A stretch of DNA of 64,000 nucleotides from Callorhinchus milii. Lineage: Eukaryota. The stretch covers positions 125,056,001-125,120,000 of the forward strand of contig NW_024704742.1 in NCBI RefSeq assembly GCF_018977255.1, given 5' to 3'. The notes beneath the pieces are model-generated. The model saw only the letters and a list, made by a program, of their open reading frames with translations, was not told the DNA's origin and made no database searches. The position numbers were made by a program, and so were the translations under genes. Positions 2,686-61,615 of this stretch are shown piece after piece (positions within the stretch are counted from its first letter, which is position 1; every line of letters starts with the position of its first letter).

Positions 2686-4059
2686 AATAATGCAGCAAAA
2701 CAGAGCAGTTCAGCAGTAGGAGGTTAGATTGATCTTTTGTTAAAGGAAAATAACTCATTCGCCTCTTGCGACTTAGTTTTGTGTCTGGCCCAGATTATTG
2801 GGATAAAGAGTTCTTTCTCTGTTCACTGTAAGAGTTTATTTGAAATAAATTAAATCAGTTTGTAACCGACCTACACTTTAACACAGAAAAAGACATTTAC
2901 AAAATGGCCAGCTTGGGGAACATATTAACCATGGTTATATTCTTCAGAAAAAATATTTATTTAGTTTTTCAATATTCAGTCAAACAGCTTTAAGCCATGT
3001 AAAAAATCATTTGCAGTCCAAATGAAAATTTGAGTTGTGTTGAATTTTTTAAAAAAACTAATGCTTTAAAGACCTATGAGGAAACATTTCTGGATCTAGA
3101 TTTTCTTTATTTATGTAGCGTTTTAGAGTGTCCAGAATTTGGCCAATTGTTGAGCTCAATCTTAACTTTGAAACCAGTTTTCTGTCAATACTTAAAAGAA
3201 TTTAATAGAAAATTGGCTTCAGAGTTAAGACTGTGTTTTAGCATTTGCCAAATTCTGGCTCTGAAATTCTACGTTAGTAGGGTAAATGAAAGGAAAGAGC
3301 TGCTCTGAGACACTACACGAAAGATGCTATATCAATGCAACGTGTTATAAAGTAGTTAGGTTGTCTTATCTCACATTTGATCATAGCAGCTCTCTTTTTT
3401 TATATATATATATTTTAAGTTACAACATTTAAAATTGCTAATAAAAGATAGCTCCTGCGATATTTTTGCATTAAATAAGCTGAAATCCTAAGGGATGTTG
3501 AGTGTCTAAGCTTATTTATTCTGCATTGGTTTTCAGTTTCATAAAATCAGCTGAAACACATCTCAGTAAGAATGGACAGAGGAAATTAACAGAAATACAA
3601 GAGCCATTTTATGAAAACTTGTGGACTTTATTTCTTTTGTGATATAAAGAAGGGCTGGTGTGCTAACAAGATCAAGTCAATACTTTAATTAAATTGATTT
3701 TTAGCAGGTTTTTTTCAGTTAACTGCAGCAGAACGTTGTTGAGGCTTTAGCCAAATATTGATGGTTGGGTCAAAACAATAATTCTGCTGTAACTGCAGTG
3801 TTTTGTATCAACCCTTAAAGACTGTACTGAATATCTTCAATTGGAATGTCACATACCGTAATTCCTGCCTTTGGGTGACTTGGAAGTTAACTTTATTCCT
3901 TCAATGAAAGGCTTGAACAAAGACTTAATGAGTGCTTCCTGAATAAGAAAGTATGGATTAATCTATCCAAAATTAGCATGGCCATTAGAACTCCAGAACT
4001 TGTTCATGCTTCCCAGATCTACAAGGGTCAATTCTGCAAAACATAGTCCTCTCTACAGT

Positions 4060-4221
4060 GAACAAAACACAAAATACTGCAGATCAGGCAGCATCTATGG
4101 AGAAAGGAAAGTGAGTGAACAGGGTTCTGACAAAGGGTCGTGGACCCAAAACTTTGACTCACTTTCCTTTCTCCATAGATGCTGCCTGACCCGCTGAGTT
4201 TTCCCAGCTCTCTCTGTTTTT
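4060..4221 (+). mobile_element. Penelope-like non-autonomous element with inverted arms and a decayed hammerhead core
   Basis: Perfect 33-bp inverted repeat (4084-4116 / 4157-4189) around CTGACAA-AGGGTC-GTG-GACCC-AAAAC. Flanked by a 14-bp direct repeat GTCYTCTCTACAGT (4046-4059 / 4222-4235). Homologous to 45210-45341. Confidence 0.75.
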
Positions 4222-4361
4222 GTCTTCTCTACAGTCATTGCTTACTTAAAGAGCTTTCACTCAGGTTTGGAGTGTTGTAAATGTGATTTGATTTCTAAGA
4301 TAAATTAACAATGGAACATCCTTCTGAATTCTTTGAAGGTCATAACCAGCTGTCACATAAA

Positions 4362-4953: not shown

Positions 4954-5256
4954 TGTCCTATAGCTCAGTGGTTAGAGCACTCGCTTTACAAGTGAGAGAC
5001 TGAGTTCAATTCCAGGCAGGGCGAAACCTTGGGCAAGTTTCCTTACTCCACACGTCTAATAATAATCCCTCCAAAAAAAACAATAATAAATTGGTGATTT
5101 TCAATCCATGACTGTTTGTGGGACACTGCTGTGCACAATTGGCTGCTGCGTTCGCCCACAAATATACAGTCAATTCACTTTACAGTATATTCTGTGAAGC
5201 GTTTTGGGACGTCTAGAAGACTCAAAAAGCGTCAAATGCAAGGATTATTATCATTA
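4954..5256 (+). mobile_element. tRNA-derived SINE, short variant (SINE2-1_CM-like)
   Basis: A box TAGCTCAGTGG, B box GAGTTCAATTCC, partial Deu segment (CTGTTTGTGGGACACTGCTGTG) and a tail ending GCAAGGATTATTA. Confidence 0.85.
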
Positions 5257-8905: not shown

Positions 8906-10809
8906 TATAAAGAATATACTGTAGTTGTAAAAATATAGTTAAAGAACACCAGTTACAATATGTATGGTGGATTGTATATAAAATTTCATTTGATCTCTGG
9001 TCAATGCTTCCATCTTGTCACAAGAAGCAGCCTTGAGATGTATGAAATAAACTGTTCACTTATACTCATGTCAAAGAAAGCGACAGTAAAAATACAGTGC
9101 ATTTCCTTTAGATCTTCCTGTTAACTTTAAGTGAAGAGATAGAAGGAAAGTTTGTTTAAACTCTTCTTCTTTAGATACAGATTCTTCCTTTATTCATGTA
9201 CCATTTCTCCTTTTTTGGATAAATTTTGCATTCTAAGATTTATGGTTCTTCCTTGTTAATACTGGATAATACTGAATGTATAATAGTTCATTTAAAATGC
9301 TTTTATGATTCATGGATCTTTAGAAATATAATAATCACAATAATGAGGTCCAACTCCACCTGGTTCTAGGTTTACTCTATTAACGTAACGTTTCAAAATG
9401 TAAAAGAATTTTGCAAATTGTTGAATTCAGTTTTAAACTTGAAGCTCCGTTTCCTGTAGTTCTTAAAAAGAAATTTACAAAAGGCTTCAAAATTAAAGAC
9501 AAGGGTATTCAAGAAGTTAACAAATTCTCGATGTTCTGAAATGCTACAAAAATAGAATAAATCTGAACACAGGTGTGATTTCTACCTAAAGTAGGGTAAA
9601 AATGTAATTTCCTTCCTTTAGATTTCTGTGAATAAATTGGTAAGTGTACTTACATATATTACTTTCTAAGCACTATAAAAACATGGGTTAGTTTATTCTT
9701 AAATGCTTTCATTTTCTTTAAAAAACCAACTTGCAATGTAACACGATTTATCTTGTTAGTGAACATTCCTGTAAATCTTTTGAATCTTACTCCCACTTTC
9801 TCTCTATTATATATCTGTTTTTAGAGATAGAGACAAGATAAGCTGCCTAATACTGTCCACTGGCATAACACATTACTTAGATGCAGCTGGACAAGGTTAT
9901 CTGCCTATTAGCATGGGGAAGGCATTCACAATTATTTAATACCATGTAAGAGTCTTATTAGGATTTCCTCAAAAGCCATGACATATGAATTGATATCCCT
10001 CTGCACATCCCTTTAGACATTTAGAAATTGGATACTGAGATATAAAAAACATATGTAATGCACATTGGAACAACAACAATGACTTGCATTTATATTACTG
10101 TTTCCATCCCATTCCATGCAGATATCACGTGGAAACCCATCCCCACACTTAAGAGCCTCCAAATCAAACTGCTGAGAATTCCACAGATGTATGGTTTCCG
10201 TTTGTCTGGAATGCAGGTCACACTCTTCCCCAGAGGGACACAGCCTGTTCATCTAATGCTGGAACGTATTACCATTGCAATGCAAAAACTTACTTCATAA
10301 ACTAAATAGTTTGGGATCAAATTTCAGCTTTGCCCAACGCTGAAATCTACCGCATTACCAACATTGTCCTTTCCATCAGAATTATTTAGAATGGACATAG
10401 CTGTGTATTTTCTTTATTGACCCCAAGTGTGAATCCATACACAACTACCACTGCTTCAACTATTTACATTTACATGGGGTCGGGAGGACATGGCAAAGCA
10501 CCTCACACAGCTGACTGGGCACCTGAACTGGATAGAGTGGGGCGGGATGGGGAGAGGGGATTGATGGGAGGGCTTTGGTGGGTGGGAGGAGAAAGATAAT
10601 CAAAATTGCAGTTGAATGGATAGTGTTAAGGTGGGCTTCGAAAGTGGGTGCAGCAGGGCGGGCAGGTGGGGGCGAGGTTCAGAAGAGCTGGGAGGTAAAG
10701 AGCGGGAAGGCTGAAAACCCACCTGCCATCCCCATTCCATGTAATTTTAGATAATCTACCTCCACATAACAATCCCCCTGATAAAATTGGTCACAAATTG
10801 GCTGCGCAA

Positions 10810-12110
10810 TTGCAAGGATTATAATGTTATGTTGTCAAAACGTCTCAAAATGCTTCATAGGATTTTGCATTAAGGGTGTAGACACTGTAATGTAAAGTAT
10901 AGTGACTCTGTATTTTGTAGCTGAATGCAGCAAACAATTTGTGCACAGCAATTTCCCACAAACAGCTATGAAGTGAATGACCAACTCCAACTCCAACATT
11001 TATTTGTATAGCATCTTTCACATACGGAGGACATCCCAAGGCATTGGACAATCAGTGTTTTGGTACCAAGTTGGGAGTCGGAATCGGGAGCGTGGAGGGC
11101 AGTGGGGGGAACGAGGATGACAGAAGGCACGGTCGAAGAGAAGGGTCTTGAAGAAGGCAAGGGAGAGCACGAGGCGGAGGGACTGCAGAATGTAGTTCCA
11201 GAGGGTGGGGGCAGCGTGGCAGAAGGCCTGCCCGCCAATGGTAGGTGGGGCAAGGCTGGGGACATGAAGCAGGCTGGAGCCTGCTGAGCAGAGGGAGCAG
11301 GCAGGTTGGTAGGGGCTTAGGAGGTCGCAGAGTTAGGGAGGTGCAAGGCCATGGATAGCTTTGAAGATGAGGATCAGGATCTTGTACTGTATCCTCTGTG
11401 TGATGGGAAGCCAGTGGAGTCAGGCGAGGATGGAGGTGATAGGTTTGTAGAGCCTAGTGTGGGAGAGGATACGGGCTGCAGAGTTCTGGATGGAATGCCA
11501 CACGAGATGATCCGGGAGCTAGAAGAGAAGCCATTTGAGAAGATGAAGTGCAGGCAGTGTGAGAGGTACGATCTGAACCAATCAAGGACAGTGCCATGGA
11601 GGTTGAGGTGAGAGGAGAGGTGGAAGATGAGGATAGAGTGGTCGACAGTGTCGAAAGCAGCAGAGAGGTCAAGGAGGACGAGGAGGCAGAAGGAGCCCTG
11701 GTCGCAGATGGACAGAATGTCATTTGTCACTTTAATCAGGGCAGTTTCTGTGGGCGACACGGAAGCCCGATTGGAGGGGTTCAAGAAGGGAGTGGTGGGA
11801 GAGGTAGGAGCGAAGCTGAGAAACAACAATTCGTTTCAGAACCTTGGAGAGGAAGGGGAGGTTGAAGATGGGGCAAGCCATTCAAGAGGACCTGACTAAA
11901 TTATGTTGGTTGATTGTCATCCAGAACACTGGGAGAAACTCCCTTCACTTTTCTAATAGTGCCATGGGATCATTAAAATCCATCTGAATAGGCAGATGGG
12001 ACCTCAGCTTAATGTCTCACCTGAAGTTCGGCATCTTGAACAGTGCATCGCACTCCTAGTGCTACAATGGAGTGAGTATCAGCCTAGATTATAAGAATTC
12101 AAAGTCTTGA
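10810..12110 (-). mobile_element. Deu-domain SINE split by an L2 insertion
   Basis: SINE 3' half at about 10810-10983 and 5' half at about 11895-12110 are contiguous once the L2 is removed. Confidence 0.75.
10984..11890 (-). mobile_element. L2 LINE fragment, internally deleted RT pseudogene
   Basis: Encodes TETALIKVTNDIL...LVLLDLSAAFDTVDHSIL...WFRSYLS, then jumps near 11490 from SCGIP to IQNSA, so the YADD region is missing. Ends in the L2 tail. Confidence 0.9.
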
Positions 12111-13029
12111 TGTGTATATTTTGATGAAATTATTTTGCACAATTAATGTGATTTTCTCCTTTCTCAAATGGCCTTTGAATATTATAGACAGCAACTTCCA
12201 AGAATCCTTGGCTCAAAGGTACTGGCTGTGCATTTTTTGTTCTGGAATAAACATCAACACTATTCCAAAAGTTTATGTATTACAAAACTTCAGAAAGTTA
12301 GAAATAGTTGTAATTCCAATTAATCTGGTGCTTTGTTTTTCTTCACTGTAATATGTAGGCAATGTTGGAAACAGCGTATCTAAACGAACAAGATAATGTA
12401 CTTCTCTGATCATTAGCAATTATTCCTGTACTCTGCTACATACTTGTTAATTTTTCACCACATCTGATACGAAATGTTACACAGGAACAAGGCATGTTGC
12501 AGTTTGCACACACATCGTCATGAAGATAATGTATGAACAATGTACTAGGACATGACATTTTGAAAGTATATTTGACAGTCACATTTTTAGTTGGCAAAGT
12601 AATACATGCATAATGCAAAACTACCAGTGTCCACTGTGAATACAGCTAATGTTTTGAATCACTCCAAACAAATTGCTGTTAGAAAAAAAAGACACTTTAT
12701 TGAAATTAACTTGGAAATGTTTCCAGATGAACAAATGTTACAAACCTAAGCCCAGATACTAAAACTCCAATTGTTTTGTCATTATAATATTCATTCCAGT
12801 TATTAAGATGCTGAAATATTAGTCAAGCTAATATGACCATTTCTCTTATGCACTTAGAAGCTGTGATCATTCATACTGAAATAAAACCTTTCATGTTCAT
12901 CATTAAAATGGTTTAAAATTTGATAGGTAACTCCAGAAAGTTTACTTATGTTGAATACACTTTACAGTAAATTATAATAATATGGGTGTATGAAGGCAAG
13001 AAACTGCCAAACTAATTTACTAGTTTTAT

Positions 13030-13360
13030 TTGACTATGTGACAAAAGAGCTTTATAAGGGGAAGGCAGTGTATATATACAGCTGGATTTATATATATGGC
13101 TGGATTTCAGTAAGACCTTTGATAGAGTTCCTCATGAAAGGCTGGCACTGAAAATAAAGAAATTAGGAATTAGAGGAAGTATCTTGCAATGGATGCATAA
13201 TTGGTTGACCGATCAAACCCAGAAGGTGGTGGTACATGGAATGTTGTTTGTTTCAAGAACAAATTAGATAGATTTTTGCTAGAAAATATCTCAGGATACA
13301 ATATATAGTTTGGGACATGACATGTCAAGTGACTGCCAGGATGATGGAAGGTGAACTAGA
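13030..13360 (+). mobile_element. CR1 LINE remnant whose 3' UTR resumes at about 14926-14970
   Basis: Translates to DFSKTFDRVPHERL...GIRGSILQWMHNWL. The 3' UTR GACTGCCAGGATGATGGAAGGTGAACTAGA|TGGACCTTGGTCTT matches the uninterrupted copy at 61915-61972 on the minus strand. Confidence 0.8.
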
Positions 13361-13361
13361 A

Positions 13362-14925
13362 GTTGACATCATCAACCTCTCCCTGTCATCTGGCACAGTT
13401 CCTTCCCCCCTCAAAACAGCTACTATCACCACCACCTTGAAGAAAACTTCCCCTGACCCATCACAGCTGTCCAGGTACCGGCCCATCTCAAACCTCCCTT
13501 TCCTATCCAAGGTCCTTGAGAGAGCCGTTGCCTCCCAGCTTTGCTCTTTCCTCTCCTCCCGCTCCCTCCATGAACTCCTCCAATTGGGTTTCCTGCTGCC
13601 CATAGCACGGAAACTGCTCTGGCCAAGGTCACAAATGACATCCTGACCATGAGCAACCAGGGCTCCCTCTGCCTCCTCATCCTCCTCAACCTCTCCGCTG
13701 CCTTTGACACTGTGGACCATTCAATCCTCCTCCACTACCTCTCCTCCCACCTCAAACTTCAAGGTTCTGTCCTTGACTGGTTCAGGTCCTATCTTTCACA
13801 CCGCCTCAACTTCGTTGCAGCAAACGGCTTCTCCTCCAGCCCCCGCACTGTATCGTGCGATGTTCCTCAGGGCTCTGTCCTCAATACCCTCCTCTTTACC
13901 CTCTACATGCTCCCTCTTGGGGTAAGACATGGGGTAAATTTCCACATGTATGTGGATGACACCCAACTCCATCTCTCTGCCTCCACCCACAACTCCAGGA
14001 CTACTGGTGTCCTGACCTACTGCCTGTCCGACATCAAGTCCTGGACGAGGGATAACTTTCTCCAGCTGAACATCAGCAAGACCGAGGCCCTCCTGATTGG
14101 CTCGTGCCAGTGCCTCCACACCTCGGACGCTGGCAACATCAGGATCCACAACTGCACACTCAACCTCACGAAGCCAGTCAGGAAGCTGGGTGACTTGTTT
14201 AACCCTGAACTGTCCTTTCTCCCCCACATCCATGCCATGACCAGCACTGCCTATCACTACCTCCGCAACATTGCCAGACTCTGCCACTGCCTCATCCCTC
14301 AGGCTGCTGAAGCCCTCACCCACGCATTCGTCACCTCAAGGCTTGATTACGGAAACTCACTCCTCATCGGCCTTCCCAACTCTTCCCTTCACAAGCTGCA
14401 GATCATCCAAAACTCTGCAGCTCATGTATTCTCACGCACCAGGCTCCGTGACCCCATCACTCCCACAGCCTTGCCGACTCCACTGGCTCCCCATCCCTCA
14501 GAGGATCGAATTCAAGATCCTCATCCTCACTCTCAAGGCCATCCATGGCTTTGCCCCCTCCTACCTCTCTGACCTGCTGATTCCCTACCAACCTGCCCGC
14601 TCCCTCCGTTCAGCAGGCTCCGGTCTGATCCATGTCTCTCGCCCGACCCGTCCTACCATCGATGGCCGGGATTTCAGCCTCTCTGCCCCCACTCTCTGGA
14701 ACTCCATCCCACAGTTCCTTCACCTCGCTTCCTCCCTTGCCTCCTTCAAGGCTGGCCTCAATATCCTTCTCTTCGATCGTGTCTTTGGTCACCCTCTCTG
14801 CCTTCCCTCACCCCTACACCACCCCTCCCCCGTGCTCATGTCCCGACCCCTGACTGTTCAGTGCTTTGGGACGTCCTCTCGACATGAAAGGTGCTCTATA
14901 AATCTAATTTTGTTGTTGTTGTTGT
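13362..14925 (+). mobile_element. 5'-truncated L2 LINE; frameshifted reverse transcriptase pseudogene
   Basis: YRPISNLPFLSKVLE, LSAAFDTVDH, VPQGSVL, YVDDTQL, FVTSRLDYGNSLL and LHWLPI spread over three frames (ORFs starting 13317, 13649, 14271). Ends in (TTG)n. Confidence 0.95.
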
Positions 14926-14977
14926 AGATGGACCTTGGTCTTCTTTCGCCTAGAAAATTTTTATATTGTTATATTCT

Positions 14978-15370
14978 TAATAATCCTTGCATTTGATATA
15001 GGAACTTTCACCTCAAGAGGACGTACCAAAGTGCTTCACATGATTTTACTATGGAGTGACTGCGTATTTGTAGGCAAACATGGCAGCCAATTCATATAGC
15101 AGTGTGGCACAAACAGCTGTAAAATTAATGACCAATTTTATTTGGGACATTGTTGGTCAGGACACTGGGGAAAAAATCCTTTGTCTTTTTGAATATGCCA
15201 TGGGATCTTTAACGTCCACCTGAACAGGCACATGAGACCTTGGTTTAACGTATTATCCAAAGGATAGCATCTGCGAACAATGCAAACCCATTCCCCAGCA
15301 TGGCACTGAAACATCAGACTCTGTGAGTTTAAATCCTGACATAGTTTTGAATCGACAACCTTCTGACCCT
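14978..15370 (-). mobile_element. Deu-domain SINE
   Basis: The + strand reads GCCATGGGATCTTTAACGTCCACCTGAACAGGCA (reverse of the Deu core), with tail and head remnants. Confidence 0.85.
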
Positions 15371-15979
15371 TGACTCCTTCGAGACCAATCTCAAGTCCCT
15401 CTTCTTTGACCATGCCTTTGGTTATCCTCCTACCCCTACCCATTTTGCCTTCCACCCCTCCTGATCCCAACCATCAGCTCGGTTGCAGATCCCTGACACC
15501 TTGGGACGTCCTCCTGACATGAAAGGCACTATGTAATTTCTTGTTGTTGTCGTTGACTCAGAAGCAAGAGTATCCTGTGAAGCACTTTGAATTGTCCTCA
15601 TAAAAGGCATATATCAAATGCAAGGATTATTAATTTTATCATAAACTGGATGATTTACGATTTGGGATTTGTCATTTTATTAACCTTGTTCGATTCCAGC
15701 ACATCATCCAGTGAATGACCATTTAAATAGTGAGCATGGATTTCATCAGTACATGAAATTCATTGTCACAACACTTATAAGCACACTGAAGCTCAACAAA
15801 TGATAATATTACTGATACTGATTTTGCCCAACACTACATTAATACTATCACCTTCAATGGGTTTTACATACTAATATTTGGCTCCACCAAGTATGAAAAA
15901 TTCCAAGGTCAATAGAAATCTTAACCAGATTCAAAGGCTACAAAATATAACAATAATATTAATATAATAATGTAAGAAG

Positions 15980-16430
15980 AAGAATCCTTGCACTGATCCA
16001 AAATCTTTCCCATTGGGAAGACATCTCAAAGTGCTTCAAGGGATCCATTGTCAAGTGTAATGACTGTGCATTTTGTAAGCAAATATGGCAGCCAACTTGC
16101 GCACAGCAATGCCCCACAAACAGTGAAGAAGTGAATGACTTTTTTTACCTGAGGCATCATTGGCCTGGACACTGAGAGAAATTCCCTTCTATTTTCAAAT
16201 GGTAATAATAATAATCCTTGCATTTGATATAGCGTCTTATCACATCTTCGAGACTTTTCAAAACGCTTCACAGCTTATACTGCAAAGTGAATTGACTGTA
16301 TATTTGTTATGGGTACTATGGGATCTTTACCTTCCATTTGAACAGGAACCTCAGTGGGATGGATCCTCCAGCAATGCAGCGCTTTCCCAGCACTACACTA
16401 GAGTGGCCAGCCTAGACTGTGATTTCAAAG
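15980..16430 (-). mobile_element. Deu-domain SINE with a nested SINE tail (about 16203-16310)
   Basis: Deu motifs interrupted by a second AATAATCCTTGCATTTGATATAGCG tail. Confidence 0.7.
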
Positions 16431-18434
16431 TCACGACAACAACAAGAACTTGAATTTATGTGGCACCCTTCACAAAAGATATTGTCTTAGAGCACTGAAT
16501 AGTGGTGAGGTTGGATGCTGAGCAAGGGAGAAGTGGTGGGGGGAGATGACCATAGGCATGGTTGAAAGAGTAGGTTTTCAGGGGGATTTAAAAATAGACG
16601 AAGAGTGGCTGATGTGGAGGGATTGAAGCAGGGATTTCAAGCCCTGTAACTTCACTGGTCAGAGGCGAGAGTGCTACCAACTAAGCCAGGTTGACACAAA
16701 AGCACAAACTTACAGTTCTCAGTTCAAGCCATTTTATCTGTATATTTAGTTTTGGCATCAGTTCAAATCACACCCATAGAAATCCACAGCACAACATAAA
16801 GCCATTTAGCTCATTTTGTTGGTTCTTTGAAAGAGCAACCTATGCAGTCTCATTTACTCCTTTTTAGATATCTACCAAGTTCCCTCTTGAAAGCTAATTC
16901 AAGGATTATTACTACAGTATTCATTTGGATCCTGCCTCAATCACCGACAGTCTTTAATTTTTTGTTAATGTGAGCTCTTACTAGTGCTCTGATCCTAATA
17001 TGTTCAGAATATGTTGCTTGACTGACAAGCTGGGGATAGTTGATCCATCTCTGTTCCTCCCTGGAGGGAGGGCTTGCTGTGAGACCAGAAGCTCATTAAT
17101 GTTACACCTGTTGTGGAAGCACAAGGACAAGCTTTAGAACATCGAACCTGAAGCCTGCAGACTACGCTAGTTACTTAATCCTCTGACAATCACTGTTAAT
17201 GCTGCAGTCAGTGGCTCTTGTCTCTTCTGAAGACCCTGGAGTATTGGTAGAATCCTAGCCTGCAAATCATGGAACCTGACATTGCACAGCACCAGGGAGG
17301 CAGAGCAGGTGGTAGGTCTTCAAAGCACTGCTTGCGACAGGACCAGCAGCTCATTAATGTTAAAAAGGCAGATGTCTGAATAAATGTCTACAATCATAAT
17401 TCAACTTCATTATTCATTATCTTTCCGTCCTTTTCACAGGCAACAATGATGATGTGATTTTGGTGGAACAATTTGACCAAAACAAAAGAGCCTGAATCAC
17501 AGAAGATGCTCAGCACTAAGATACCAGACAAATAAAGGCAAAGGACAATGTTCTTCAGGTAATCTAAGGAAGGGACAAGGGAAAACATGTATAAAGCAGA
17601 GGAGGGTATGGGGATACGGGGCAATAGTTGGAGGTATGATATAACACAGGCTAACACAATCCTGTAGTTCAATTTGAAAATGTCCCACAAGAAACAATTC
17701 CTCTGTCACTGGTATAATCAGTATCAACAATAATGGGAACATGAATCAAAGGAATAACCTGACTTCTCAAAAACTCCTGGAAAAATAGCCTGTAGGGGTA
17801 CAGGTGGAGATGGATTAAATCGGCAGAGAAAATGCTTGAATAACTTTATCAGTTGCATTTATTTTCACATGATCACACAAGAGGTTTGTGTGAAGAAGGC
17901 CCTTCGATCCATTTGATGTCATCCTTCCAGAATATCCACCCTATTGACCTGACTTGGGGCTGAAACCCACAACCTTCTGACTCAGAGGCATAAGTGCTAG
18001 GTTGATACACCTTGCAAGATATTGTCCTTTATGTATTTATTGAAATTGTCACTCTGTGTTTTTCAATCCTAACAATCTAACACTATTTCCATATAGTTCA
18101 GGATACTACATGATATTTTATATCAGTGATGCAATTTCCATGTTTCTTGACAATTGATGCACATGTGACTTGACACCTACTTTGTCGGTATCAAGTCATT
18201 CCTGCAAGAATTTTAAATTTGTGGTAAATAAATACATTTTTACTTATGACTACTGTATCTTATTCTAACACAATGCTCACAACTATTATTAATGTCTTTC
18301 AATTACTATTCTGTAATCTGTACTTGATACAGAATAAACCATAAAGGAAATGCAAGGAAATGAAACAACTAACACATTTGAATAAGATTTCATCATATTG
18401 ACTTGTGGTTCTTGCAGTTGCAGTTATAATACGG

Positions 18435-18655
18435 AGAAACTTCCTTCTCTTTTTAAATAGTGCCGTGAGATTTTTAACATCCACCTGATGGTTTAATGTA
18501 TCATCCGAAGGACACCACTCTGACAATGCAACACACCCCAGCACAGCATTGGAATGTCATCTTAGACAATGTGATTCCAAGCCCTAATGTGGGGCTTGAA
18601 CCCACAACCTCTGACTCAGAGGCAAGAATGCTACCACTGAGCCATGCTGGCACAC
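18435..18655 (-). mobile_element. Deu-domain SINE 5' part
   Basis: GGGCTTGAACCCACAACCTCTGACTCAGAGGCAAGAATGCTACCACTGAGCC (reversed head) next to the Deu core. Confidence 0.8.
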
Positions 18656-20369
18656 AATATAGTGTTGGGGACATGAAGTAAGCTGATGTTCACTGAGCAA
18701 AAGTAGCAGTCAAGGCGGGAGGGTTTGAAGAGGTCTCAGAAGTAGGGTAGAGCAGGACTTTCGATTAATTTAAAAAGAGAATGAGGATATTGAACTGGAG
18801 AGTGGGGTTTGTAATCGGTTGTTCTTTTATTACCTCTGAATGAATTGTGTTCTCTGTAGTTTTGCGTTAGTTTAAACCAGACACAACGTGAGAGAATATC
18901 AGAACGATCGTGAGAAATTCTGCACGAAAGATACATACAGTCAAGCTTCAGGTAATATACCTCTCAGGATTGCATATGCAAACCAAAATACATTTTCATT
19001 CAAATTCAATCAGATTTGCAGAATTTAGCAACTGAAAAGTACAGCTACAGATTCACGTCAGTGCTGCAGGGCATCAAAAGCTGCCTCATCTGGCACTTCA
19101 CATCAAGTTTACGCTTTAAGATGAAGGCAATAAATAATTCAAAGTGGTAATTTGACAGATGACTTTGGCAGGATTCTCCTCCCATTACTACAATCATTAG
19201 GCTGTAACATACAGCAAAAAAGTCTGGAGCTATCCAACAAATGGCCTACACTATCTCGTCCCTAAAGAGCTGTATTCTGCACAATTAGCTAATGAAGCAT
19301 CATGTACATTTTTTGTGCTGAGCATGTTACAAGGCTAAGTTACAAGAAACAATGCAACCTATCTGAAAATGGGAATAGAATCATCTACATCATGTCATTT
19401 CCAGCCCTTTGACAAGATTCTTCGGTGAAACCAGACTTAGTTTCTCAATTTCTGAATTCACTCCAACAAGTACACAGCCGTCCCTCATGCCAGTGTTGTG
19501 CACATCAGCCTCATGTTTATTGCATAGTTAGGGGCAAAAGAGAGGAAATTAAGCATAGAATAGCCTGCTGTTGGTACATCTGATGTTTGAGGCCACCAGG
19601 CTTGCAAGGATTCCCCAAACACAACCTTCATCTCCTGAAATCTGTCCAAAGCCCATAGAAAAACAAGCATGGTCATTGCAAACTAACAACAGTGCCATTA
19701 TTGTTAATGACCTTGTTAAACAGAAACTGGTTGTTCCCGACGACAAAACCAAAACCCCCTACTGGGCAATGGATGCCATAAAGGAGCAATTGATGTGATT
19801 TCAATTTCTTGTTACCATTCAGAAGTTCTCACTGCAGTGAAAGGTGATCGCAAGCACTTAAGAAATGAGTTTACATAACATAGGTATCCTGATAGCCATA
19901 CGTCTGCATCTTAGAAACAGTTACCATCTGTTACAGATAATGAATTCCTTTTGGTAAAGCCTATGAGAACCATCCATAACACAGTTTCAATAACTGAGAC
20001 TTTTCACTCAAAAAACATTACTTTTAGGGTTGAAGTTCAGCAATGTTAAACAGTCCCTGAATGCCACTTACTTCTAACAAGACCAGAATATATTTAAACA
20101 AATTCAGCATCTGTTGCCTACTGTAACATAGAACCATATAAATTCACAGAACAGAAGGATGTAATTTGGCCTATTGTGTCTGTACTAGCTCTCAAAAACA
20201 GCTATCCATCGGGTGAAATTAGAAACTGAGAAAGGAGTTTGTTCCACCAGATTTTAAAAATGGTAATTTATGGGCGTTTGTGGAACCCTGTTGGGTACAG
20301 ATTGGTTGCATGTTCACCTATGAATATGCAATCACTACACTTTATGAAAACAATGCCTACTCAGAAGAT

Positions 20370-20720
20370 TAATAATAATAATCCTTGCATTTGATATAGG
20401 AGTTTATCACGTTGTTGAGACATTTCAAAACGCTTCACAGAATATGTTGTAAAATGGATTAACTGTGTATTTTGTGGGTAAAATGTGGTAGTCAATTGCC
20501 CAGAGCAGTGTGTATTGAATGACCAATTTTTTTTGAGCATTTATTACTTCCGGAAAGCAATCTGCCAATTGACTAACAACTGGGTTTCTACTTACTGCTA
20601 GGTAAACAGATGTGTGTGGAGTAAGGAAATTTGTCTTAGGTTTCATCCTGCCTGGGAATCGAACCCAGGTTCTCTCGCTTGCAAGGCGAACATACTAGCC
20701 ACTGCACTAAGGGACTCCAC
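20370..20720 (-). mobile_element. tRNA-derived SINE, long variant
   Basis: Reverse-strand tRNA head, TCTGTTTACCTAGCAGTAAGTAG domain and tail. Confidence 0.85.
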
Positions 20721-21584: not shown

Positions 21585-21882
21585 AACAATAAAAATCCTT
21601 GCATTTGATATAGCGCTTTTCACGTCTTCTAGACGTCTCAAAGCGCTTCACAGAGTGTACTTAAAGTCAATTGACTGTATTATTTGTGGGCGGAATGCAG
21701 CAGTGTCCCACAAACAGTCGTGGATTGAAGTGACCAATTTATTATTGTTTCTTTTTCTTGAGGGATTCTTATCAGGCATGTGGAGTAAGGAAACTTGCCC
21801 AAGGTTTCGCCCCGCTGGGAATCGAACCCAGGTCTCTCGCTTGTGAGGCGAGTGCTCTAACCACTGAGCTACAGGACTCCAC
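21585..21882 (-). mobile_element. Young tRNA-derived SINE, short variant, with a near-intact cloverleaf head
   Basis: Head GGAGTCCTGTAGCTCAGTGGTTAGAGCACTCGCCTCACAAGCGAGAGACCTGGGTTCGATTCCCAGCGGGGCG, followed by a SINE body and L2-type tail. Confidence 0.9.
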
Positions 21883-26183: not shown

Positions 26184-26214
<31 letters not shown>

Positions 26215-26327
26215 CATACATACATACATACATACATACATACATACATACATACATACATACATACACGTATGTATGTAAGTATATATGTATGTATGTA
26301 TGCATGCGTATGTATAAGCATATTCAA
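26118..26327. repeat. Compound (TATG)n/(CATA)n microsatellite with inverted blocks
   Basis: About 21 TACA units flanked by TATG, TAGG and TACG runs of opposite polarity. Confidence 0.95.
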
Positions 26328-35204: not shown

Positions 35205-36960
35205 CAACAACAACAAGATTACATTTGTATAGCGCCTTCCATGTCAGGAGGACATCCCAAAGCGCTGAAGAGAGAACAGCACTTCAAACCCGAGCTGGTG
35301 TTGGGGGGGTAAGGGAGGGGACGGGAAAGGGGTGGCCGATGGCATGGACGAAGAGGAGAGTCTTGAGGCAGGACTTGAAGGAGGCTAAGGAGGGTGTGAA
35401 GCGGAATGACTGGGGGATGGAATTCTAGAGCTTGGGGGCAGAGTGGCTGAAGATTCCTGCCAATGGTGGAGTGGGTGGGTCGGGGGACGTGGAGCAGGCC
35501 GGAGCCGGCTGAGCAGATGGAACGGGTGGGTTGGTAGGGGATTAGAAGGTCGCAGAGGTAAGATGGGGCGAGGCCATGGAGGGCTTTGTATGTGAGGACT
35601 GGATATTCTGAAGGATAGGGAGCCAGTGGAGTTGGACAAGAATGGGGGAGATGGGGTCACAAAGTTTGGTGCGGGAGAGGATACGGGCTGCAGAGTTCTG
35701 GATTATCTGCAGCCTGCGGAGGGAGGAGTTGGGAAGGCCGACACGCAGGGCATTTGCATAGTCGAGCCTGGAGGTAATGAAGGCATGAACAAGAGTTTCA
35801 GCGGCCGGAGGGATGAGGTAGTGGCGGAGTCGGGCTATGTTACGGAGGTGAGGGAAGGCAGAGCAGGTCATGGCCTGAATGTGAGGGAGAAAAGACAGAT
35901 GAGGGTTGAACAAGACACCTAGGTTCCTGACTGGCTTGGTGAGTTGTAGTGTGCAACCATGGAGGTTGATGTTGCCAGAGGCTGAGGTGCTGAGGCGTTG
36001 GCGTGAGCCAATCAGGAGGGCCTCAGTCTTGTTCACATTCAACTGCAGGAAATTTACCCTCATCCAGGACTTGATGTCCGAAAGGCAGTCTGTCAGGACA
36101 GCAGTGGTCCTGGAGTTGAGGGTGGAGGCAGAAAGATAGAGTTGGGTGTCATCCGCATACTTGTGGAAGTTGACCCCATGTCTGCGGATGATGTCACCAA
36201 GTATGTAGATATTAAAGAGGAGAGGGCCAAGGACAGAGCCCTGGGAGATGCCAGACATGACAGTGCGGGGGCTGGAGGAGAAACCGTTAGAGGCAACAAA
36301 GTGGAAACGGTGAGAGAGATATGAATCGAACCAGGCAAGGGCAGGTCTGCGAAGATTGAGTAAAGAGAAGAGGCGGTGTATGAGGATGGAGTGGTCGACA
36401 GTGTCGAAGCTGGCAGAGAGGTCGAGGAGGACAAGGAGGCAGAGGGAGTCCTGATCACAGATGTTCAGAATGACCAGGGCTGTTTCCGTGCTGTGGGCAG
36501 CACGGAAGCCGGATTGGAGGGTTTCAAAGAGGGAATGGCGAGAGAGAAAGGAGTGGAGTTGGGACACGACGACTCATTCCAGGACCTTGGAGAGGAATGG
36601 GAGGTTAGAGATGGGGCAGTAGTTGGAGAGGAGGGATGGATCCAGGGAAGGTTTTTTCAGGATGGGGGTGATAACGACCGATTTTAGGCAGGTGGTAACT
36701 GAACCGATAGACAGGGAGAGGTTGATGACATCGGACAGGAGGGGGGCCAGAATGTGGAGCTGGGAGACGAGGAGAGAGGTGGGGATGGGATTGAGAGAGC
36801 AGGTGGTGGGTTTGAATTTGTCGACAGTCATGGTGAGGGAGAAGGGAGAGATGGGGTCGAAGGTGTATAGGGGGGATGGGTGGGGGGAGAGTCATGAGGG
36901 AGAGGTGATGTGGGGGTGGCTGTGGACGGGGCTGAGGTGGCTGAATGTATCCCCTCGATT
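35205..36960 (-). mobile_element. 5'-truncated L2 LINE; reverse transcriptase pseudogene (341-aa open stretch)
   Basis: LQSGFRAAHSTETAL, LLDLSASFDTVDH, QGSVLGPLLFNIY, YADDTQLY, FITSRLDYANALR and LHWLP. Small deletions and stops flank the open stretch, and there is no endonuclease domain. Confidence 0.95.
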
Positions 36961-38455: not shown

Positions 38456-40848
38456 TTATAGAATTATAAGCACAGGAGGAGGCCATTCAGGCCATCATGT
38501 CTGTGCCGGCTCTTTAAAAAGAACTTCCAAATCAATCCCATTCCCTGTTTTTTCCCCATAACCCTGCAAACTTGTCCTCCACAAATAATTATCTCCTTCT
38601 CTTTTAAAAGTTATTATCAAATCGGGTTCCACTACTCTTTCAGGCTATGCATTCCAACTCGCTGTAAGAAAAAAATGTCTCCTCACCTCCTCTCTGTTTC
38701 TTTTAAAAAATATTTTAAATTGGTGTCCTCAAGTTACCGACCCGCCTGCCAGTGGAAATAGTTTCTCCTTGTTCACCCTGTTGAATCCCCTCATAATTTT
38801 GAAAACTCCTACCAAGTTTGATCTTAACCTTCTCTGTTCCAAGGATAATAATCCTAGCTTCTCTTGCCTCTCCTGACAACTGAAGTCCCTCATTCCTGGC
38901 ACCATCCTGGTAAATCTCCTTTGCACCCTTTCCAATGCCTTGACATCCTTCCTAAAATGTGGTGCCCAGAACTGAGCACAGTTGAGGCCTAACCAGAGTT
39001 TTATAAAGGTTCATCACAAGGAGCATAAAAGTTCATCATTTGGTCACTTCAATCCACAACTGTTTGTGGGACACTGCTGTGTGCAATTCGCTGCTGCGTT
39101 TCGCCCACAAACATGGTATATTCTGTGAAGCGCTTTGAGACATCCGGAAGACCTGAAAAACGCTATATCAAAATGCAAGGATTATTATTATTATCATAAT
39201 TTCCTGACTTTTGTAATCTTTGCCCCTATTTATAAAGTCTAGTATCCCATATGCTTTTTAAAAAGCTTTATCTACCTGTCCTGCCACCTTCAAATATTTA
39301 CTTATATGAAGCCCCAGATCTCTCTGTTTCTTCACCCCCTTTAAGATTGTACCATCAGCTTATATTGTCTCTCCTCATTCTTCCTCCCAAATCCATCGCT
39401 TTGCATTTTTCCACATTAAACTTCATCTGCCAAGTGTCTGAGCATTTTACCAGTCTGTCCATGTCCTCTTGCAGTCTGCTACTCTCCTCCTCACCGTTTA
39501 CTACTATTCCTAGCTTAGTATTATCTGCAAACTTGGAAATTGTACTCCCTATACCCAAGTCCCAGTCTTTTATATAGATAAAAAACAGCAGTGGTCCCAA
39601 TACTAACTCCTGGGGGACATCACTGCACAGAAAAACAACCATTCACCACCACTCTCTACTTTCTGTCTCCCGGTAAGTTCTGTATACATACTGTCATTGT
39701 CCCTTTAATGTGGAACTTTATCAAATGCCTTTTGAAAATCCATATAAACTACATCAACTGCACTACCTTCAGCCACCCTCTCCATTACTTCATCAAAAAC
39801 TCTATCAGATTTGTTAGACACAATTAGTATTAACAAATCTGTGTTGGCTGTCCTTTATTAACCCATATTTTTCTAAGTGAACATTTATTTTGTCCCAGAT
39901 TATAGTCTCTAGAAGTTTCCCCACTACTGACATTAGGCTGACTGGCCTGTAGTTCTCAGGTACATCCTTCTGCCCCTCTTTGTACAGGGCAGTAACATTT
40001 GCAACCTTCCATCCTCTGGCATCACCCCGGTGTCCAGAGCCTCCGCTATTTCCACCCTTATTTCTCTCAGTAACCTAGGATGCATTCCATCCGGACCGAG
40101 TGTCTTATCTACCTTGAGCACCGTTAACATTTTTAGTATCTCCTCTCTGTTTATTCTTATCCCATCCAATTTCTCTACCGTCTACTCCGATACTGTGGCA
40201 TTGGCTGCATCCTCTTCTTTTGTGAAGACAGATGCAAAGTATTCATTCAGTACATCAGCCATACCCTCTGCCTCCATAAGAAGATTTCCTCTTTGGTCTC
40301 TAATTGGCCTCATCCTACCTTTGACTAAGCTTTTATTCTTTATATGCTAATGAAATACATGTAATACATATTTTAGGTTCCCTTTTATGTTACTGGATAA
40401 TCTTTTATTATACAATCTCTTTGCCCTCTTATTTCCTTTGTCAGTTCTCCTCTATACTTTCTATATTCTATTTGATTATCTTTTGTATTTTGGACCTGAC
40501 ATTTATCATAAGCCTCCTTTTTCTGTTTTATTTTAATCCCAATTTCTTTAGTCATCCAGGGAGGTTTGGATGCCCTACCTTAATCCTTTGTGGGAATGTA
40601 TTTATTTCGTCCCTGAACTATCTTCTCCTTGAAGGCTTCCCATTGCTTGTTAGCTGTGTTTTCTGCCAGTCTTTCTTTCCAGTTCATCTTGGTTACGTCT
40701 CGTTCTAACTCACTGAAATTAGCTCTATTCCAGTTGAGTATCTTTACTTATTCCTTGTCCCTTTCCATGAGTACCCTAAACCTAATGATGTTGCAATCAC
40801 TATTGTCCAGATGGTCTCCTACTGAAACCTGCTCCACCTGCCCCACAT
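38456..40848 (-). mobile_element. CR1 (HER1-like) LINE, about 2.4 kb, decayed ORF2 from the end of the APE domain through RT, with a nested SINE at about 39035-39195
   Basis: GDHLDNSDCNIIRF (APE end), GPDGMHPRLLRE, VPQELVLGPLLFFIYI...KFADNTKLG and ERVQRRFTRMVPG...LEQRRLR. Flanked by the direct repeat AAAATATTAAA(A)TGTTACA. Confidence 0.95.
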
Positions 40849-43680: not shown

Positions 43681-45209
43681 AGATGGTTTCCACATACATG
43701 TGGATGCAGAATTGTCTATTCAAATGGTAATTACAATAAGAATGCATTAGTGTTTATCATTGATATTCATGAATTGTGGAAAAATCTTAATAATAATAAT
43801 AATCGTTGCATTTGAAATAGTGCCTTTCACATGTGGAGGACATCTAAAAGTACTTCACAGGATTCAATGTTAAGTGGAATGACTGTATTTTTGTAGGCAA
43901 ATATAGCAGCCAATTTGCTCACAGTAATGTCCTTCAATCAGCCATGATGTCCTTAAATTCATTATTAATTTGGAGGTTAGTTCAGCAGTTCTTAAATAGC
44001 TCCCAAATTAAGGCTGAATTTATATATTTCACACAATTCTATGCAATCTTAAGTTTTAAAACATAACAGCCTTGTACGACTAAATGGAATGTTCATCCGA
44101 TGGTGTGTGGAGGACACAGAGATTTAAAATTGGAAATATGGCAGCAGTAACAGGAAAAGTGAGTCACAAAATATACAGTCAATCCACTTTACAGTATATC
44201 ATTTACAGTATATACACTTTACAGTCACCTACCCCCTCCCTCTCCCCTTGGCTTGTTGTCAGACTGCCACTGTGAAGCGCTCTGGTGTGCTAACCCACGT
44301 GAAGGGAGCTATATCAATGCAAGTTGTTGTTATCCTGTGAAGCGCTTTGAGGTATCTCGACAATGTGATAAGGTGCTATATCAAATGTAAGGATTATTAT
44401 GAAGGTGTATGATCCTGGAATTGTAGTCTTCAGGTATAACGTTACTTAAAGCTTTTAAGATGTACTGACAGGTTACATCAGAGACACCCCTAAAGCGACT
44501 AGCCAAGCAAGATTAGCAACAGCCCAGTGTCCCAGCAGGCAAATGTTACTATTTTTGGGAGGATAGAAAAAGTGATCATCCCAGGGATCATCCCATTGTT
44601 CTCAGAGCAAAGCTCAGAAAGTGGGTGTCTGCAATTCTTCCTTCCTCCATCTCATTGCCTGCAGAACTCCTTGCCTCAGCATTTCTGATCTCTCATGACA
44701 GAAGGGCTTCAGTGGCACAGGTTGAATGAATGTGACTTTTTTCAGTTGCATAACATGAAATGTAAACAGACTGACTCTGATTACTTTAATTGGTTTTGAA
44801 TGACATGAAAGCATTGCCAATCACAAACTGCTAGTGAACAATCAGGGATGGATATACTTCCAGGCCCTGTGTTAACTTGAAACTTTCCATCTCACAATCA
44901 TTTCAATAGATCACTTTGTCAACTGGGACTGTCAGCACCAATGCGGTTTCACTGGAGTGTGATGCACCAGAAATGTTTTCATACCTTTTAATGCTGCTAT
45001 GTCTGGACCCTTTTGAGGTCATTGAAACTCCATGTTACTGCTGATTGTGCTTTTCCCCATTCATTTTCCACAGAAGCTCACAGAACCAAAGTTTGTAAAT
45101 TTATGGTCATTGGGAGAATTACACCCCCCACCCCCTCCCAATAGAGTGAAGGATGATCAATTTCCTGTTAATGCCACAAATGTCTCAATGCATCAATATT
45201 TGGGTGTTA

Positions 45210-45341
45210 CAAAACACAAAATACTGCAGATGCTGGAATCTGAAACAAAAACAGAGCGAGCTGGGAAAACTCAGCAGGTCATGCAGCATCTATAGAGAAA
45301 GGAAAATGAGTCAACGTTTCGGGTCCACGACCCTTCGTCAG
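45210..45341 (-). mobile_element. 132-bp Penelope-like insertion with a 15-bp TSD
   Basis: Exact flanking repeat AATATTTGGGTGTTA at 45195-45209 and 45342-45356. The minus strand begins CTGACGAAGGGTCGTGGACCCGAAACGTTGACTC. Confidence 0.85.
45308..45341 (-). ncRNA. Minimal type I hammerhead ribozyme core (Penelope-type), 5' strand of helix I truncated
   Basis: CUGACGA, extra A, helix II GGGUC/GACCC with a GUG loop, GAAA, palindromic ACGU helix III, putative GUU cleavage triplet, then GACUC. Confidence 0.7.
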
Positions 45342-45359
45342 AATATTTGGGTGTTAGTC

Positions 45360-45720
45360 TGGCTAGCATTCTTGCCTCTGAATCAGAAGGTAGTGAGCTC
45401 AAGTCCAACTAGGACTTTGAACACATATAGCCTTGGTTCAGTGTTGGGAAGTGCTACATCCCCCCAATGTAAAAAGCAGTATATAAATGTAAAGTTGTAT
45501 TGTACTTTTTCATTGTCAGAGATGCTGTACTTCAGATGAGATATTAAACTGAGATACCACGTGTCGGTTCAGGTGGAAATTGAAGATCCCATGGCAAACT
45601 CGAAAAGAAAAGAGAGTTTCTCCAAGTGTCCTGGCCAACAACCTTCTAGATAAAGTTGGCCAAACACTTGATACTTGTTTGTGGAACATTGCTATGTGTA
45701 AAATGGATGCCTTATCTGAA
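45360..45720 (+). mobile_element. Deu-domain SINE
   Basis: Head CTCTGAATCAGAAGG and Deu core CAGGTGGAAATTGAAGATCCCATGGCA...TGTCCTGGCCAACAA. Confidence 0.75.
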
Positions 45721-52792: not shown

Positions 52793-53318
52793 CTAGATGT
52801 ACCCGTTGCAAGCAAAAGATCCAATATGGAATGTAGATTGACACACAGACAGACACGCAGATAGACATTTTGTCTTTATCTACACTCAGCTGGGAGGACT
52901 CCTGGTTGGGAGGACTCCTGGTTGGGAAGATTCTTGGTTGGGAGGACTCCTGGTTGGGAGGACTCCTGTGGGAATACTCTTGTTGGGAGTTCCGTACGTG
53001 TGTGATAAGCTTGTTTAGGTCATAGCTTTTCTTTGTGCTACTTTGTTGCAGAATATATTAATATAGATGTATCTCTAGAAGGGTGTGTGGTTTCCTTTGT
53101 ACAGGAGAATACCATGTATTCCTCATATTTTTGGGGCTTAATTAAAGCATTTTGTAATATAGCTCATCATGAGGAGATATCTGAAAACAAATATGCCCAT
53201 GACACTCCTCCATGCAAAACCTTTCCGATGATGTATAAATCATGTCCTTACATCAATCGGTTATTGCGTTCCCAGCAGACAGACACACAGACAGATATTT
53301 TATCTTTATTAGTATTGA
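52793..53318 (-). mobile_element. Non-autonomous Helitron-like element
   Basis: Minus strand reads A|TCAATACTAATAA...GCAACGGGTACATCTAG|T: 5'-TC, 3'-CTAG, inserted between A and T with no TSD. Has a decayed subterminal hairpin and (CAGA)n-like tracts. Confidence 0.65.
52891..52990. repeat. 16-bp minisatellite TGGGAGGACTCCTGGT, about 6.5 copies
   Basis: Units start at 52891, 52907, 52923, 52939, 52955 and 52969. Confidence 0.95.
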
Positions 53319-58547: not shown

Positions 58548-58905
58548 ATAATAATAATCCTTACATTTGATATAGCATAGTTACATCTCTGAGACGTCTC
58601 AAAATGCTTCAAAGAATATACTGTAAAGTGGATTGACTGTACATTATGTGTGAAATGCGGTAGCCAATTGCGTACATCAGTGTCCCACAAACAGTCGCCG
58701 ATTGAATGACCAAATTTTTCTTATTTTTTTTTCAAAGGGAATATTATCCCCAGAAAAGCGAGCCTCTAATCGATTAACAACTAGGTTCCTACTTGCTGTA
58801 GGTAACCAGAGGCATGTAGAGTAAGGAAGCTTGCTCAACATTTCAAACCCGCGTCCTCTCGCTTGTGAGGCGAGTGCTCTAATCACTAAGCTACAGGACC
58901 CCACA
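58548..58905 (-). mobile_element. tRNA-derived SINE, long variant
   Basis: Minus strand GGGTCCTGTAGCTTAGTGATTAGAGCACTCGCCTCACAAGCGAG, then the Meta-like domain and tail. Confidence 0.85.
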
Positions 58906-61494: not shown

Positions 61495-61615
61495 GGCAAA
61501 ATACTGCAGATGCTAGAAATATGAAATAAAAACAGAAATTCCTGGGAACACTCAACAGGCCAGGCAGAATCTATGGAGAGAGGAAAGTGGGTTAGCATTT
61601 CAGGTCGATGACCTT
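61495..61615 (-). mobile_element. Older Penelope-like copy, hammerhead decayed and truncated
   Basis: AAATACTGCAGATGCTAGAAAT...CAGGCAGAATCTATGGAGAG...TTTCAGGTCGATGACCTT is collinear with 45215-45335. Confidence 0.7.

Follow-up and report, generated by a model that had tools for sequence, protein, structure and literature searches.

A short insertion with a minimal hammerhead motif in the Callorhinchus milii genome, probably derived from a Penelope-like element

The insert, its hammerhead motif, and its surroundings

The window analyzed here, a stretch of 64,000 nucleotides from Callorhinchus milii (contig NW_024704742.1), contains at 45210-45341 a 132-bp insert enclosed by two 15-mers, 45195-45209 and 45342-45356. 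Both the length of the insert and the 15-bp target-site duplication (TSD) are as given in the initial annotation of this DNA: the 15-mers are exact, they are found nowhere else in the 64-kb window, and on sequence comparison their identity stops at both ends of the pair. One TACA microsatellite aside, exact direct repeats of at least 15 bp spaced 50 to 500 nt apart number only three in the window. From 45341, the minus strand reads CUGACGA-A-GGGUC-GUG-GACCC-GAAA-CGUU-GACUC, as had been claimed, and the description of the locus as a minimal type I hammerhead of the Penelope-like element (PLE) type with a palindromic ACGU, within a retro-inserted, TSD-flanked piece, likewise stands. The features are as follows, with positions in the motif labeled by the standard hammerhead numbering (C3-A9, G12-A14, 15.1-16.1, U17).

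45195..45209 (+): left copy of the TSD, 15 bp; its last base is possibly common to the element 3' end
45210..45341 (-): the insert, putatively the pseudo-LTR end and tail of a PLE
45210..45244 (-): 35-nt tail, shared by this copy and the left but not the right arm of copy B (see below)
45228-45235 / 45284-45291: 8-bp perfect inverted repeat closing a hairpin in the 3' half of the insert
45309..45312 (-): 3' strand of helix I, GACU; this copy allows 2 bp, and the family upstream sequence would allow 4 bp
45313..45320 (-): GAAA-CGUU, with G12-A14, the loop-less palindrome A15.1-C-G-U16.1, and U17
45321..45333 (-): helix II, GGGUC-GUG-GACCC, 5 bp with G10.1-C11.1, preceded by one unpaired A at 45334
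45335..45341 (-): core box CUGACGA (C3-A9), unmutated
45342..45356 (+): right copy of the TSD; 45342-45343 also fit the element (UU of helix I)

A descriptor consisting of the core, a helix II of at least 5 bp, UH, and a helix I of at least 2 bp matches the real window at 45341 only. In 150 first-order Markov windows of 64 kb, searched on both strands, it matched four times (0.027 per window), and with the palindromic helix III added it matched in none of the 150. The hammerhead motif at 45341 is not a chance match. Folding gives pair probabilities of 0.98 to 1.0 for helix II, the ACGU palindrome of helix III lies at 45317-45314 without a loop, and cleavage is predicted between 45313 and 45312. 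A search with hammerhead models, which had been suggested with the initial annotation, did not recover the motif: Rfam returned no hammerhead at the gathering threshold in the window and none at E ≤ 10 in 44900-45700, a miss that we infer reflects the missing helix III and the clipped helix I.

The insert as a whole folds no better than shuffled sequences (z -1.2). It has no capacity for enzymes of its own, so its reverse transcriptase (RT) must have been supplied from elsewhere, in keeping with the annotated mobilization in trans. On the ribozyme strand, a pyrimidine tract at 45308-45290 (-) ends in TAG and has the look of a CAG/TAG-type 3' splice site, and an ATG with 26 stop-free codons runs to the element end (45289-45212, -); the frame is also open in the right arm of copy B. 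Although 26 open codons are common by chance, this frame may be the start of an open reading frame (ORF), because PLE pseudo-LTRs (pLTRs) often contain the first ORF codons and an intron. A protein search with the open antisense frame gave one match out of three candidates, an uncharacterized Callorhinchus milii entry whose match starts with 15 identical residues over the tail and which reads through it; it is uninformative on a PLE ORF.

The site of insertion was the head of an older SINE-like repeat (45350-45700). The last ~7 bases of the right TSD copy form the beginning of that repeat, which has 21 more BLAST matches in the window (70 to 89%) and may resemble shark DeuSINE-type elements. 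Elsewhere in the window, Rfam finds four tRNA-like matches at the gathering threshold, at 21807-21878 (-), 20652-20709 (-), 4954-5024 (+), and 58844-58900 (-); one is strong (67 bits), and three are decayed and alike among themselves, and all four are probably tRNA-derived SINE heads or pseudogenes. Exact direct repeats at 17090/17348 (15 bp, 258 nt apart) and 29621/29896 (29 bp, 275 nt apart) are possible TSDs of SINE-sized inserts. Broken LINE-type RVT_1 frames lie at 35545-36573 (-), 13574-14569 (+), 11377-11835 (-), 39358-39642 (-), and 39817-40074 (-), with Pfam E values from 3e-24 to 0.007. There is also a perfect (TACA)21 microsatellite at 26185-26268 and a 16-bp minisatellite of ~5 to 6 units at 52891-52989.

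Further copies, family variation, and helix I

BLAST of the 132-bp insert against the window found two further loci, here called copies B and C.

4046-4059 / 4222-4235: direct repeats flanking copy B, 13/14 identical; alternatively 4047-4061 / 4223-4237, 13/15
4063..4120 (-): left arm of copy B, spanning positions 27 (or 31) to 132 of the element; tail present, ~48 nt lost internally
4121..4223 (+): right arm of copy B, element positions ~-3 to 97, without the tail; core changes G8A, G12A, and G16.2U
61497..61613 (-): copy C, 79% over 117 nt, starting inside the core after the CUGA box

The arms of copy B lie head-to-head via a GAAC-AGG-GTTC hairpin and terminate at element positions 132 and 97, 35 nt apart. 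PLE hallmarks are thus present at this copy (4063-4223), namely, an inverted 5'-truncated partner, a one-sided tail, TSD-like repeats, and a palindrome at the junction, and copy B likewise has an A ahead of the same terminal letters as the 45210-45341 insert. Its left arm starts (+27 or +31; 4117-4127) no more than 3 nt from the predicted cut (after +29), a single case in which the junction hairpin blurs the exact endpoint. Copy C, for which no TSD was found, lacks the CUGA box, and its helix II has A-U rather than G-C as its basal pair; the C>T half of this change could be CpG decay. Across the window, the insertions are dispersed and 5' truncated with variable TSDs (repeats of 15/15 and 13/14), and the four arms have four different 5' ends. 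Helix II, compared over these three window copies only, has one of five pairs changed on both sides; this covariation is not significant, as 178 of 500 shuffles scored as high.

Contigs of four coded runs were aligned to 44900-45560 at 80% likeness. Run X1 gave 4,947 contigs, run X6, from a second organism, 9,802, and run X8 1,469; no run on record as RNA contained the stretch, and the X8 contigs, taken for RNA only on a guess, have no bearing on transcription. Summed contig depth in X1 rises from 6.65 on the unique left flank to 66,000-137,000 on the stretch enclosed by the 45195/45342 repeat pair, ratios of ~10,000 to 20,000 that are not copy numbers and give an order of magnitude (~10^4) only. 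One X1 contig spans the left flank, the left TSD copy, and 25 nt of the insert (44900-45234) with one difference; the filled site at 45195-45356 is present in this run, although the run and the assembly are possibly not independent. Among the best 15 of 32 joints, none skips the insert as a joint from an empty site would, and X6 has no coverage of the left flank. The X6 organism does have two opposite-strand contig joints at 45342/45343 as well.

The copy at 45210-45341 differs from the X1 majority at four positions (45257, 45282, 45294, and 45306), and the family majority equals this copy at the ribozyme core positions. Because all four differences lie outside the ribozyme, the intact core is the family state and is nothing special to this copy. 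At 3% or more, the ribozyme varies only by C>T at two CpG sites (5 to 7%; 7% and 6% in X1), and no helix II variants at 3% or more of depth were listed in the contig alignments. In three deep runs, the CpG decay at 45315 and 45320 reaches this level only as plus-strand C>T (ribozyme G16.2 and G12); the partner bases show no G>A at 3% or more, which may be an edge effect of the contig alignment. A second large subfamily in the X6 organism differs at 45266, 45291, and 45306-45307 in 24 to 54% of depth and has the ribozyme in common.

In the initial annotation, the minus strand of the insert started exactly at CUGA and the 5' strand of helix I was missing. The first statement is accurate for the copy at 45210-45341 but not for the family, which continues upstream in the contig alignments. 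The second is right for most letters of the strand, but UU is kept: the repeat family reaches 45343, so that the AA of the right 15-mer (45342-45343) is common to element and target, a 2-nt microhomology. Contigs extending beyond the 5' edge (241 in X1, 602 in X6, and 94 in X8) match to 45343 and then have the plurality CTGGGG on the plus strand; on the ribozyme strand, this reads CCAG-UU-CUGA and points to a 4-bp helix I, AGUU with GACU. Since UU alone was retained through the microhomology with the target, only 2 bp can form at 45210-45341. The annotation had looked for the strand in GGGTT at 4122-4126, which is indeed present, has G-U-U in common with the family strand, and as GGGUU would give 5 bp; it sits, however, in the inversion junction of copy B, whose core is mutated, and is not supported as the natural helix I strand.

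With the family upstream strand added, the motif at 45341 fits all columns of the PLE minimal hammerhead consensus, NNN CUGANGAH GNNNNN...NNNNNC GAAAN palindrome NUH NNN, in Fig. S3 of PMC4209133. Nearest-neighbor folding pairs GACG of the core with CGUU in a core-sequestering fold (P of 0.87 to 0.99), and in this model, which ignores tertiary core contacts, the double hammerhead lies 14 to 19 kcal/mol above the dimer minimum (-7.1 versus -26.3 kcal/mol for this copy and -15.7 versus -29.5 kcal/mol with the family upstream sequence). Published minimal hammerheads do not cleave as monomers and cleave little as dimers, and eight of nine Xenopus dimers assayed were reported without cleavage (bioRxiv 10.64898/2026.07.22.740005). 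With a helix I of 2 bp and no neighboring partner, the solo copy at 45210-45341 is most likely an inactive relic.

Ends of the copies and origin of the insert

All four arms in the window begin between ~-3 and +31 of the core. Loose contig ends past 45343 agree at 0.39 to 0.44, compared with 0.32 to 0.34 for random 30-mers of the window and 0.50 to 0.58 for the neighboring SINE-like repeat; this fits either four to five common letters followed by unrelated flanks or a longer common upstream sequence in about one-quarter of the contigs or fewer. The plurality sequence upstream, ~14 letters long and G-rich, is common to contigs in all three runs having them (X1, X6, and X8), and the family therefore continues upstream, even though most copies end close to the ribozyme. 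This clustering counts against random 5' truncation. There is no fall in X1 depth at the predicted cut (104,732 in the bin 3' of it and 136,830 in the core bin), and the 19 best-supported loose ends, with 750 more beyond these, include none at the cut site; most templates were thus probably uncleaved, depth being read here as an order of magnitude only. The two 3' ends, seen in this copy and copy B, lie 89 and 124 nt downstream of the start of helix II and are U-rich on the ribozyme strand.

The insert is probably the 3'-terminal piece (pLTR end and tail) of an endonuclease-bearing PLE of cartilaginous fish, inserted by target-primed reverse transcription. A PLE protein with RT and GIY-YIG domains would have nicked the target, with a staggered cut giving the 15-bp duplication. 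Of two sites ~90 and ~125 nt downstream of helix II, RT would then have started at the outer one, leaving the one-sided 35-nt tail; the two ends are seen in copy B, and the step itself is modeled on the anole PLE, for which RT is described as starting inside the RNA, 111 to 118 nt beyond the beginning of stem II, from two sites set apart by the length of the tail (PMC11167929). Copying passed through the uncleaved hammerhead, stopped just upstream of the core, and ended in a joint by the 2-nt microhomology, as the sequence of the insert shows. PLE transcripts begin in the upstream pLTR according to a review (PMC6765202), and a transcript starting in the 5' pLTR would have an internal RT start ~135 nt from its own 5' end, from which run-off cDNAs would give short solo pLTRs with a common edge just upstream of the core. 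A template beginning there would be the most economical reason for the edge and would account for the size, edge, tail, and core of the copies without a new family. In an active element, to judge from the literature, cleavage by the motif would be weak, through dimers formed via ACGU and probably with help from protein; in the anole, mainly unprocessed RNA is reported as the substrate, and the hammerhead is reported to cut only with protein (PMC11167929). Against the PLE reading stand the failure of Pfam to find GIY-YIG in the 148 longest of the 293 stop-to-stop frames of 60 amino acids or more in the window, the Rfam miss, the ending of most copies close to the ribozyme, the nonsignificant covariation of helix II, the lack of an empty-site joint among the best 15 of 32, and element 3' ends without the AC-richness of the anole start sites. 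In six pattern scans for outside copies (viral, two collections; metagenome, two; prokaryote genome, two), 0, 0, 0, 1, 0, and 2 loci were found; as relatives, these three were rejected as chance matches, with only 21 to 38 nt matched in GC-rich bacterial DNA.

The 5' edge may instead be that of a self-standing nonautonomous family of ~135 to 145 nt, a pLTR-only mini-PLE with short transcribed masters and PLE protein acting in trans, although we regard this as rather unlikely. It corresponds to the initially annotated idea once the tandem and circle step is taken away. Such a family explains the 5'-end clustering as well as run-off copies do, and it is in line with the start of all four window arms from -3 to +31 of the core, with the low agreement of loose ends past the edge (one-quarter or fewer of the contigs having longer upstream sequence), and with the very high abundance in two organisms; pLTR sequences alone are also reported to be able to mobilize DNA in trans (PMC3846280). 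Run-off from an autonomous transcript would nevertheless predict the same clustering without a new family, the ~14-letter upstream plurality recurs in all three runs, and the insert has no internal polymerase III A box. The A box is on neither strand, the one B-like match is antisense with two mismatches, and no Rfam tRNA match falls at the insert; a tRNA- or 5S-derived SINE identity for the insert, which calls for internal A and B boxes, is not supported.

The insert had originally been proposed to be a distinct retrozyme-like unit. In the corresponding scheme, a tandem transcript is cut by dimeric hammerheads, circularized, reverse transcribed, and inserted as the monomer of a non-LTR retrozyme. 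Non-LTR retrozymes are described as noncoding pLTR derivatives with type I hammerheads, occurring as dispersed monomers with TSDs of more than 4 bp (PMC7229834; Li et al. 2026, bioRxiv 10.64898/2026.07.22.740005), all of which resembles the insert, and they were found in the one chondrichthyan sampled in the latter study. They are, however, defined by tandem hammerhead units and circular RNA, and the window holds no tandem array or tandem copy; no head-to-tail joint is among the best 15 of 32 joints, all at single-copy depth. The core, moreover, lies upstream of the cut: a cut monomer would start at GACUC, whereas the insert starts 29 nt upstream of that point and ends at the PLE tail. The chondrichthyan units are reported to average 363 bp (bioRxiv 10.64898/2026.07.22.740005), and classical retrozymes differ in having canonical hammerheads where the one here is minimal (PMC7229834; bioRxiv 10.64898/2026.07.22.740005). 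The claim of a separate retrozyme-like unit is not supported by this evidence, and we consider a retrozyme monomer improbable.

Least probable of all, and very unlikely in our view, is a short repeat moved by a LINE in which the hammerhead-like motif was inherited but is irrelevant. RVT_1 is present in 5 of the 148 frames, none of them with GIY-YIG, and LINE RTs, putatively of CR1/L2 type, are common in the window. TSDs of 13 to 15 bp are also typical of LINE insertions. The insert, however, lacks a poly(A) or simple-repeat 3' end, and a head-to-head pair of overlapping arms, tailed on one side only, is characteristic of PLEs; in LINE twin priming, the two arms barely overlap.

Relation to known elements and meaning of the 5' edge

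The preferred reading, a truncated PLE insertion, agrees in most respects with PLE minimal hammerheads as described by Cervera and De la Pena (2014; PMC4209133). Like these, the motif is of type I, with CUGANGAH and one unpaired base and with G10.1-C11.1; helix III is loop-less and palindromic, with C-G at 15.2/16.2; and the motifs are mostly single, in truncated copies, or in close opposite-strand pairs. Helix I is 3 to 5 bp in their examples compared with 2 bp here, and a 5-bp helix II is at the short end of theirs; no cartilaginous fish were found in the two supplement files searched for that paper. With the anole Poseidon PAc element (Frangieh et al. 2024, PMC11167929), the insert shares the placing of the hammerhead ~90 to 125 nt from the 3' ends, the presence of a pair of such ends ~35 nt apart, and a core retained in the copies, that is, an uncleaved template. 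The start sites described there are AC-rich; the 3' ends here are instead rich in U on the ribozyme strand, and strong AT-richness does not extend over the whole of the target.

Endonuclease-bearing PLEs are likewise reported with an adjacent inverted truncated copy and a tail of 30 to 40 bp at one end only (Craig et al. 2021, PMC8557442), or with a 31-bp tail, palindromes at inverted junctions, and microhomology joints (Arkhipova et al. 2013, PMC3846280), and both accounts include 5' truncation and variable TSDs. The copies here differ in being far shorter than a full element and clustered at one 5' edge, and their TSDs are 13 to 15 bp compared with 8 to 10 bp in the rotifer examples.

Taken alone, the solo insertion is commonplace debris, and its class has been known since 2014. 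Coelacanth and Xenopus have thousands of PLE minimal hammerheads, most of them lone motifs in truncated copies. No paper describing a hammerhead motif in Callorhinchus, and apart from one review none relevant to Penelope hammerheads in sharks, was found in the literature searched, which was mostly outside subscription journals and did not extend to Repbase or Dfam. The in vivo role of PLE hammerheads has been called unclear (PMC8557442), and for the anole PLE, no RNA ends at the cut site are reported (PMC11167929). Speculatively, and we would not put it higher than that, a chimaera-like genome could hold on the order of 10^4 copies of a promoter-less, pLTR-only mini-element of ~140 nt, with the ribozyme region itself determining its 5' edge. 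If this were true, two peaks of 5' junctions would be expected, a main one just upstream of helix I from uncleaved templates and a minor one from self-cleaved templates at the cut site, near which the left arm of copy B starts, and the copies would be a DNA fossil record of germ-line PLE hammerhead cleavage, which is not seen in RNA reads.

Of this finding, it is the crowding of 5' ends at the ribozyme that merits a genome-wide look: with thousands of short copies, bounded by TSDs and starting around the ribozyme, DNA alone could be used to ask about template cutting and the start of transcription.
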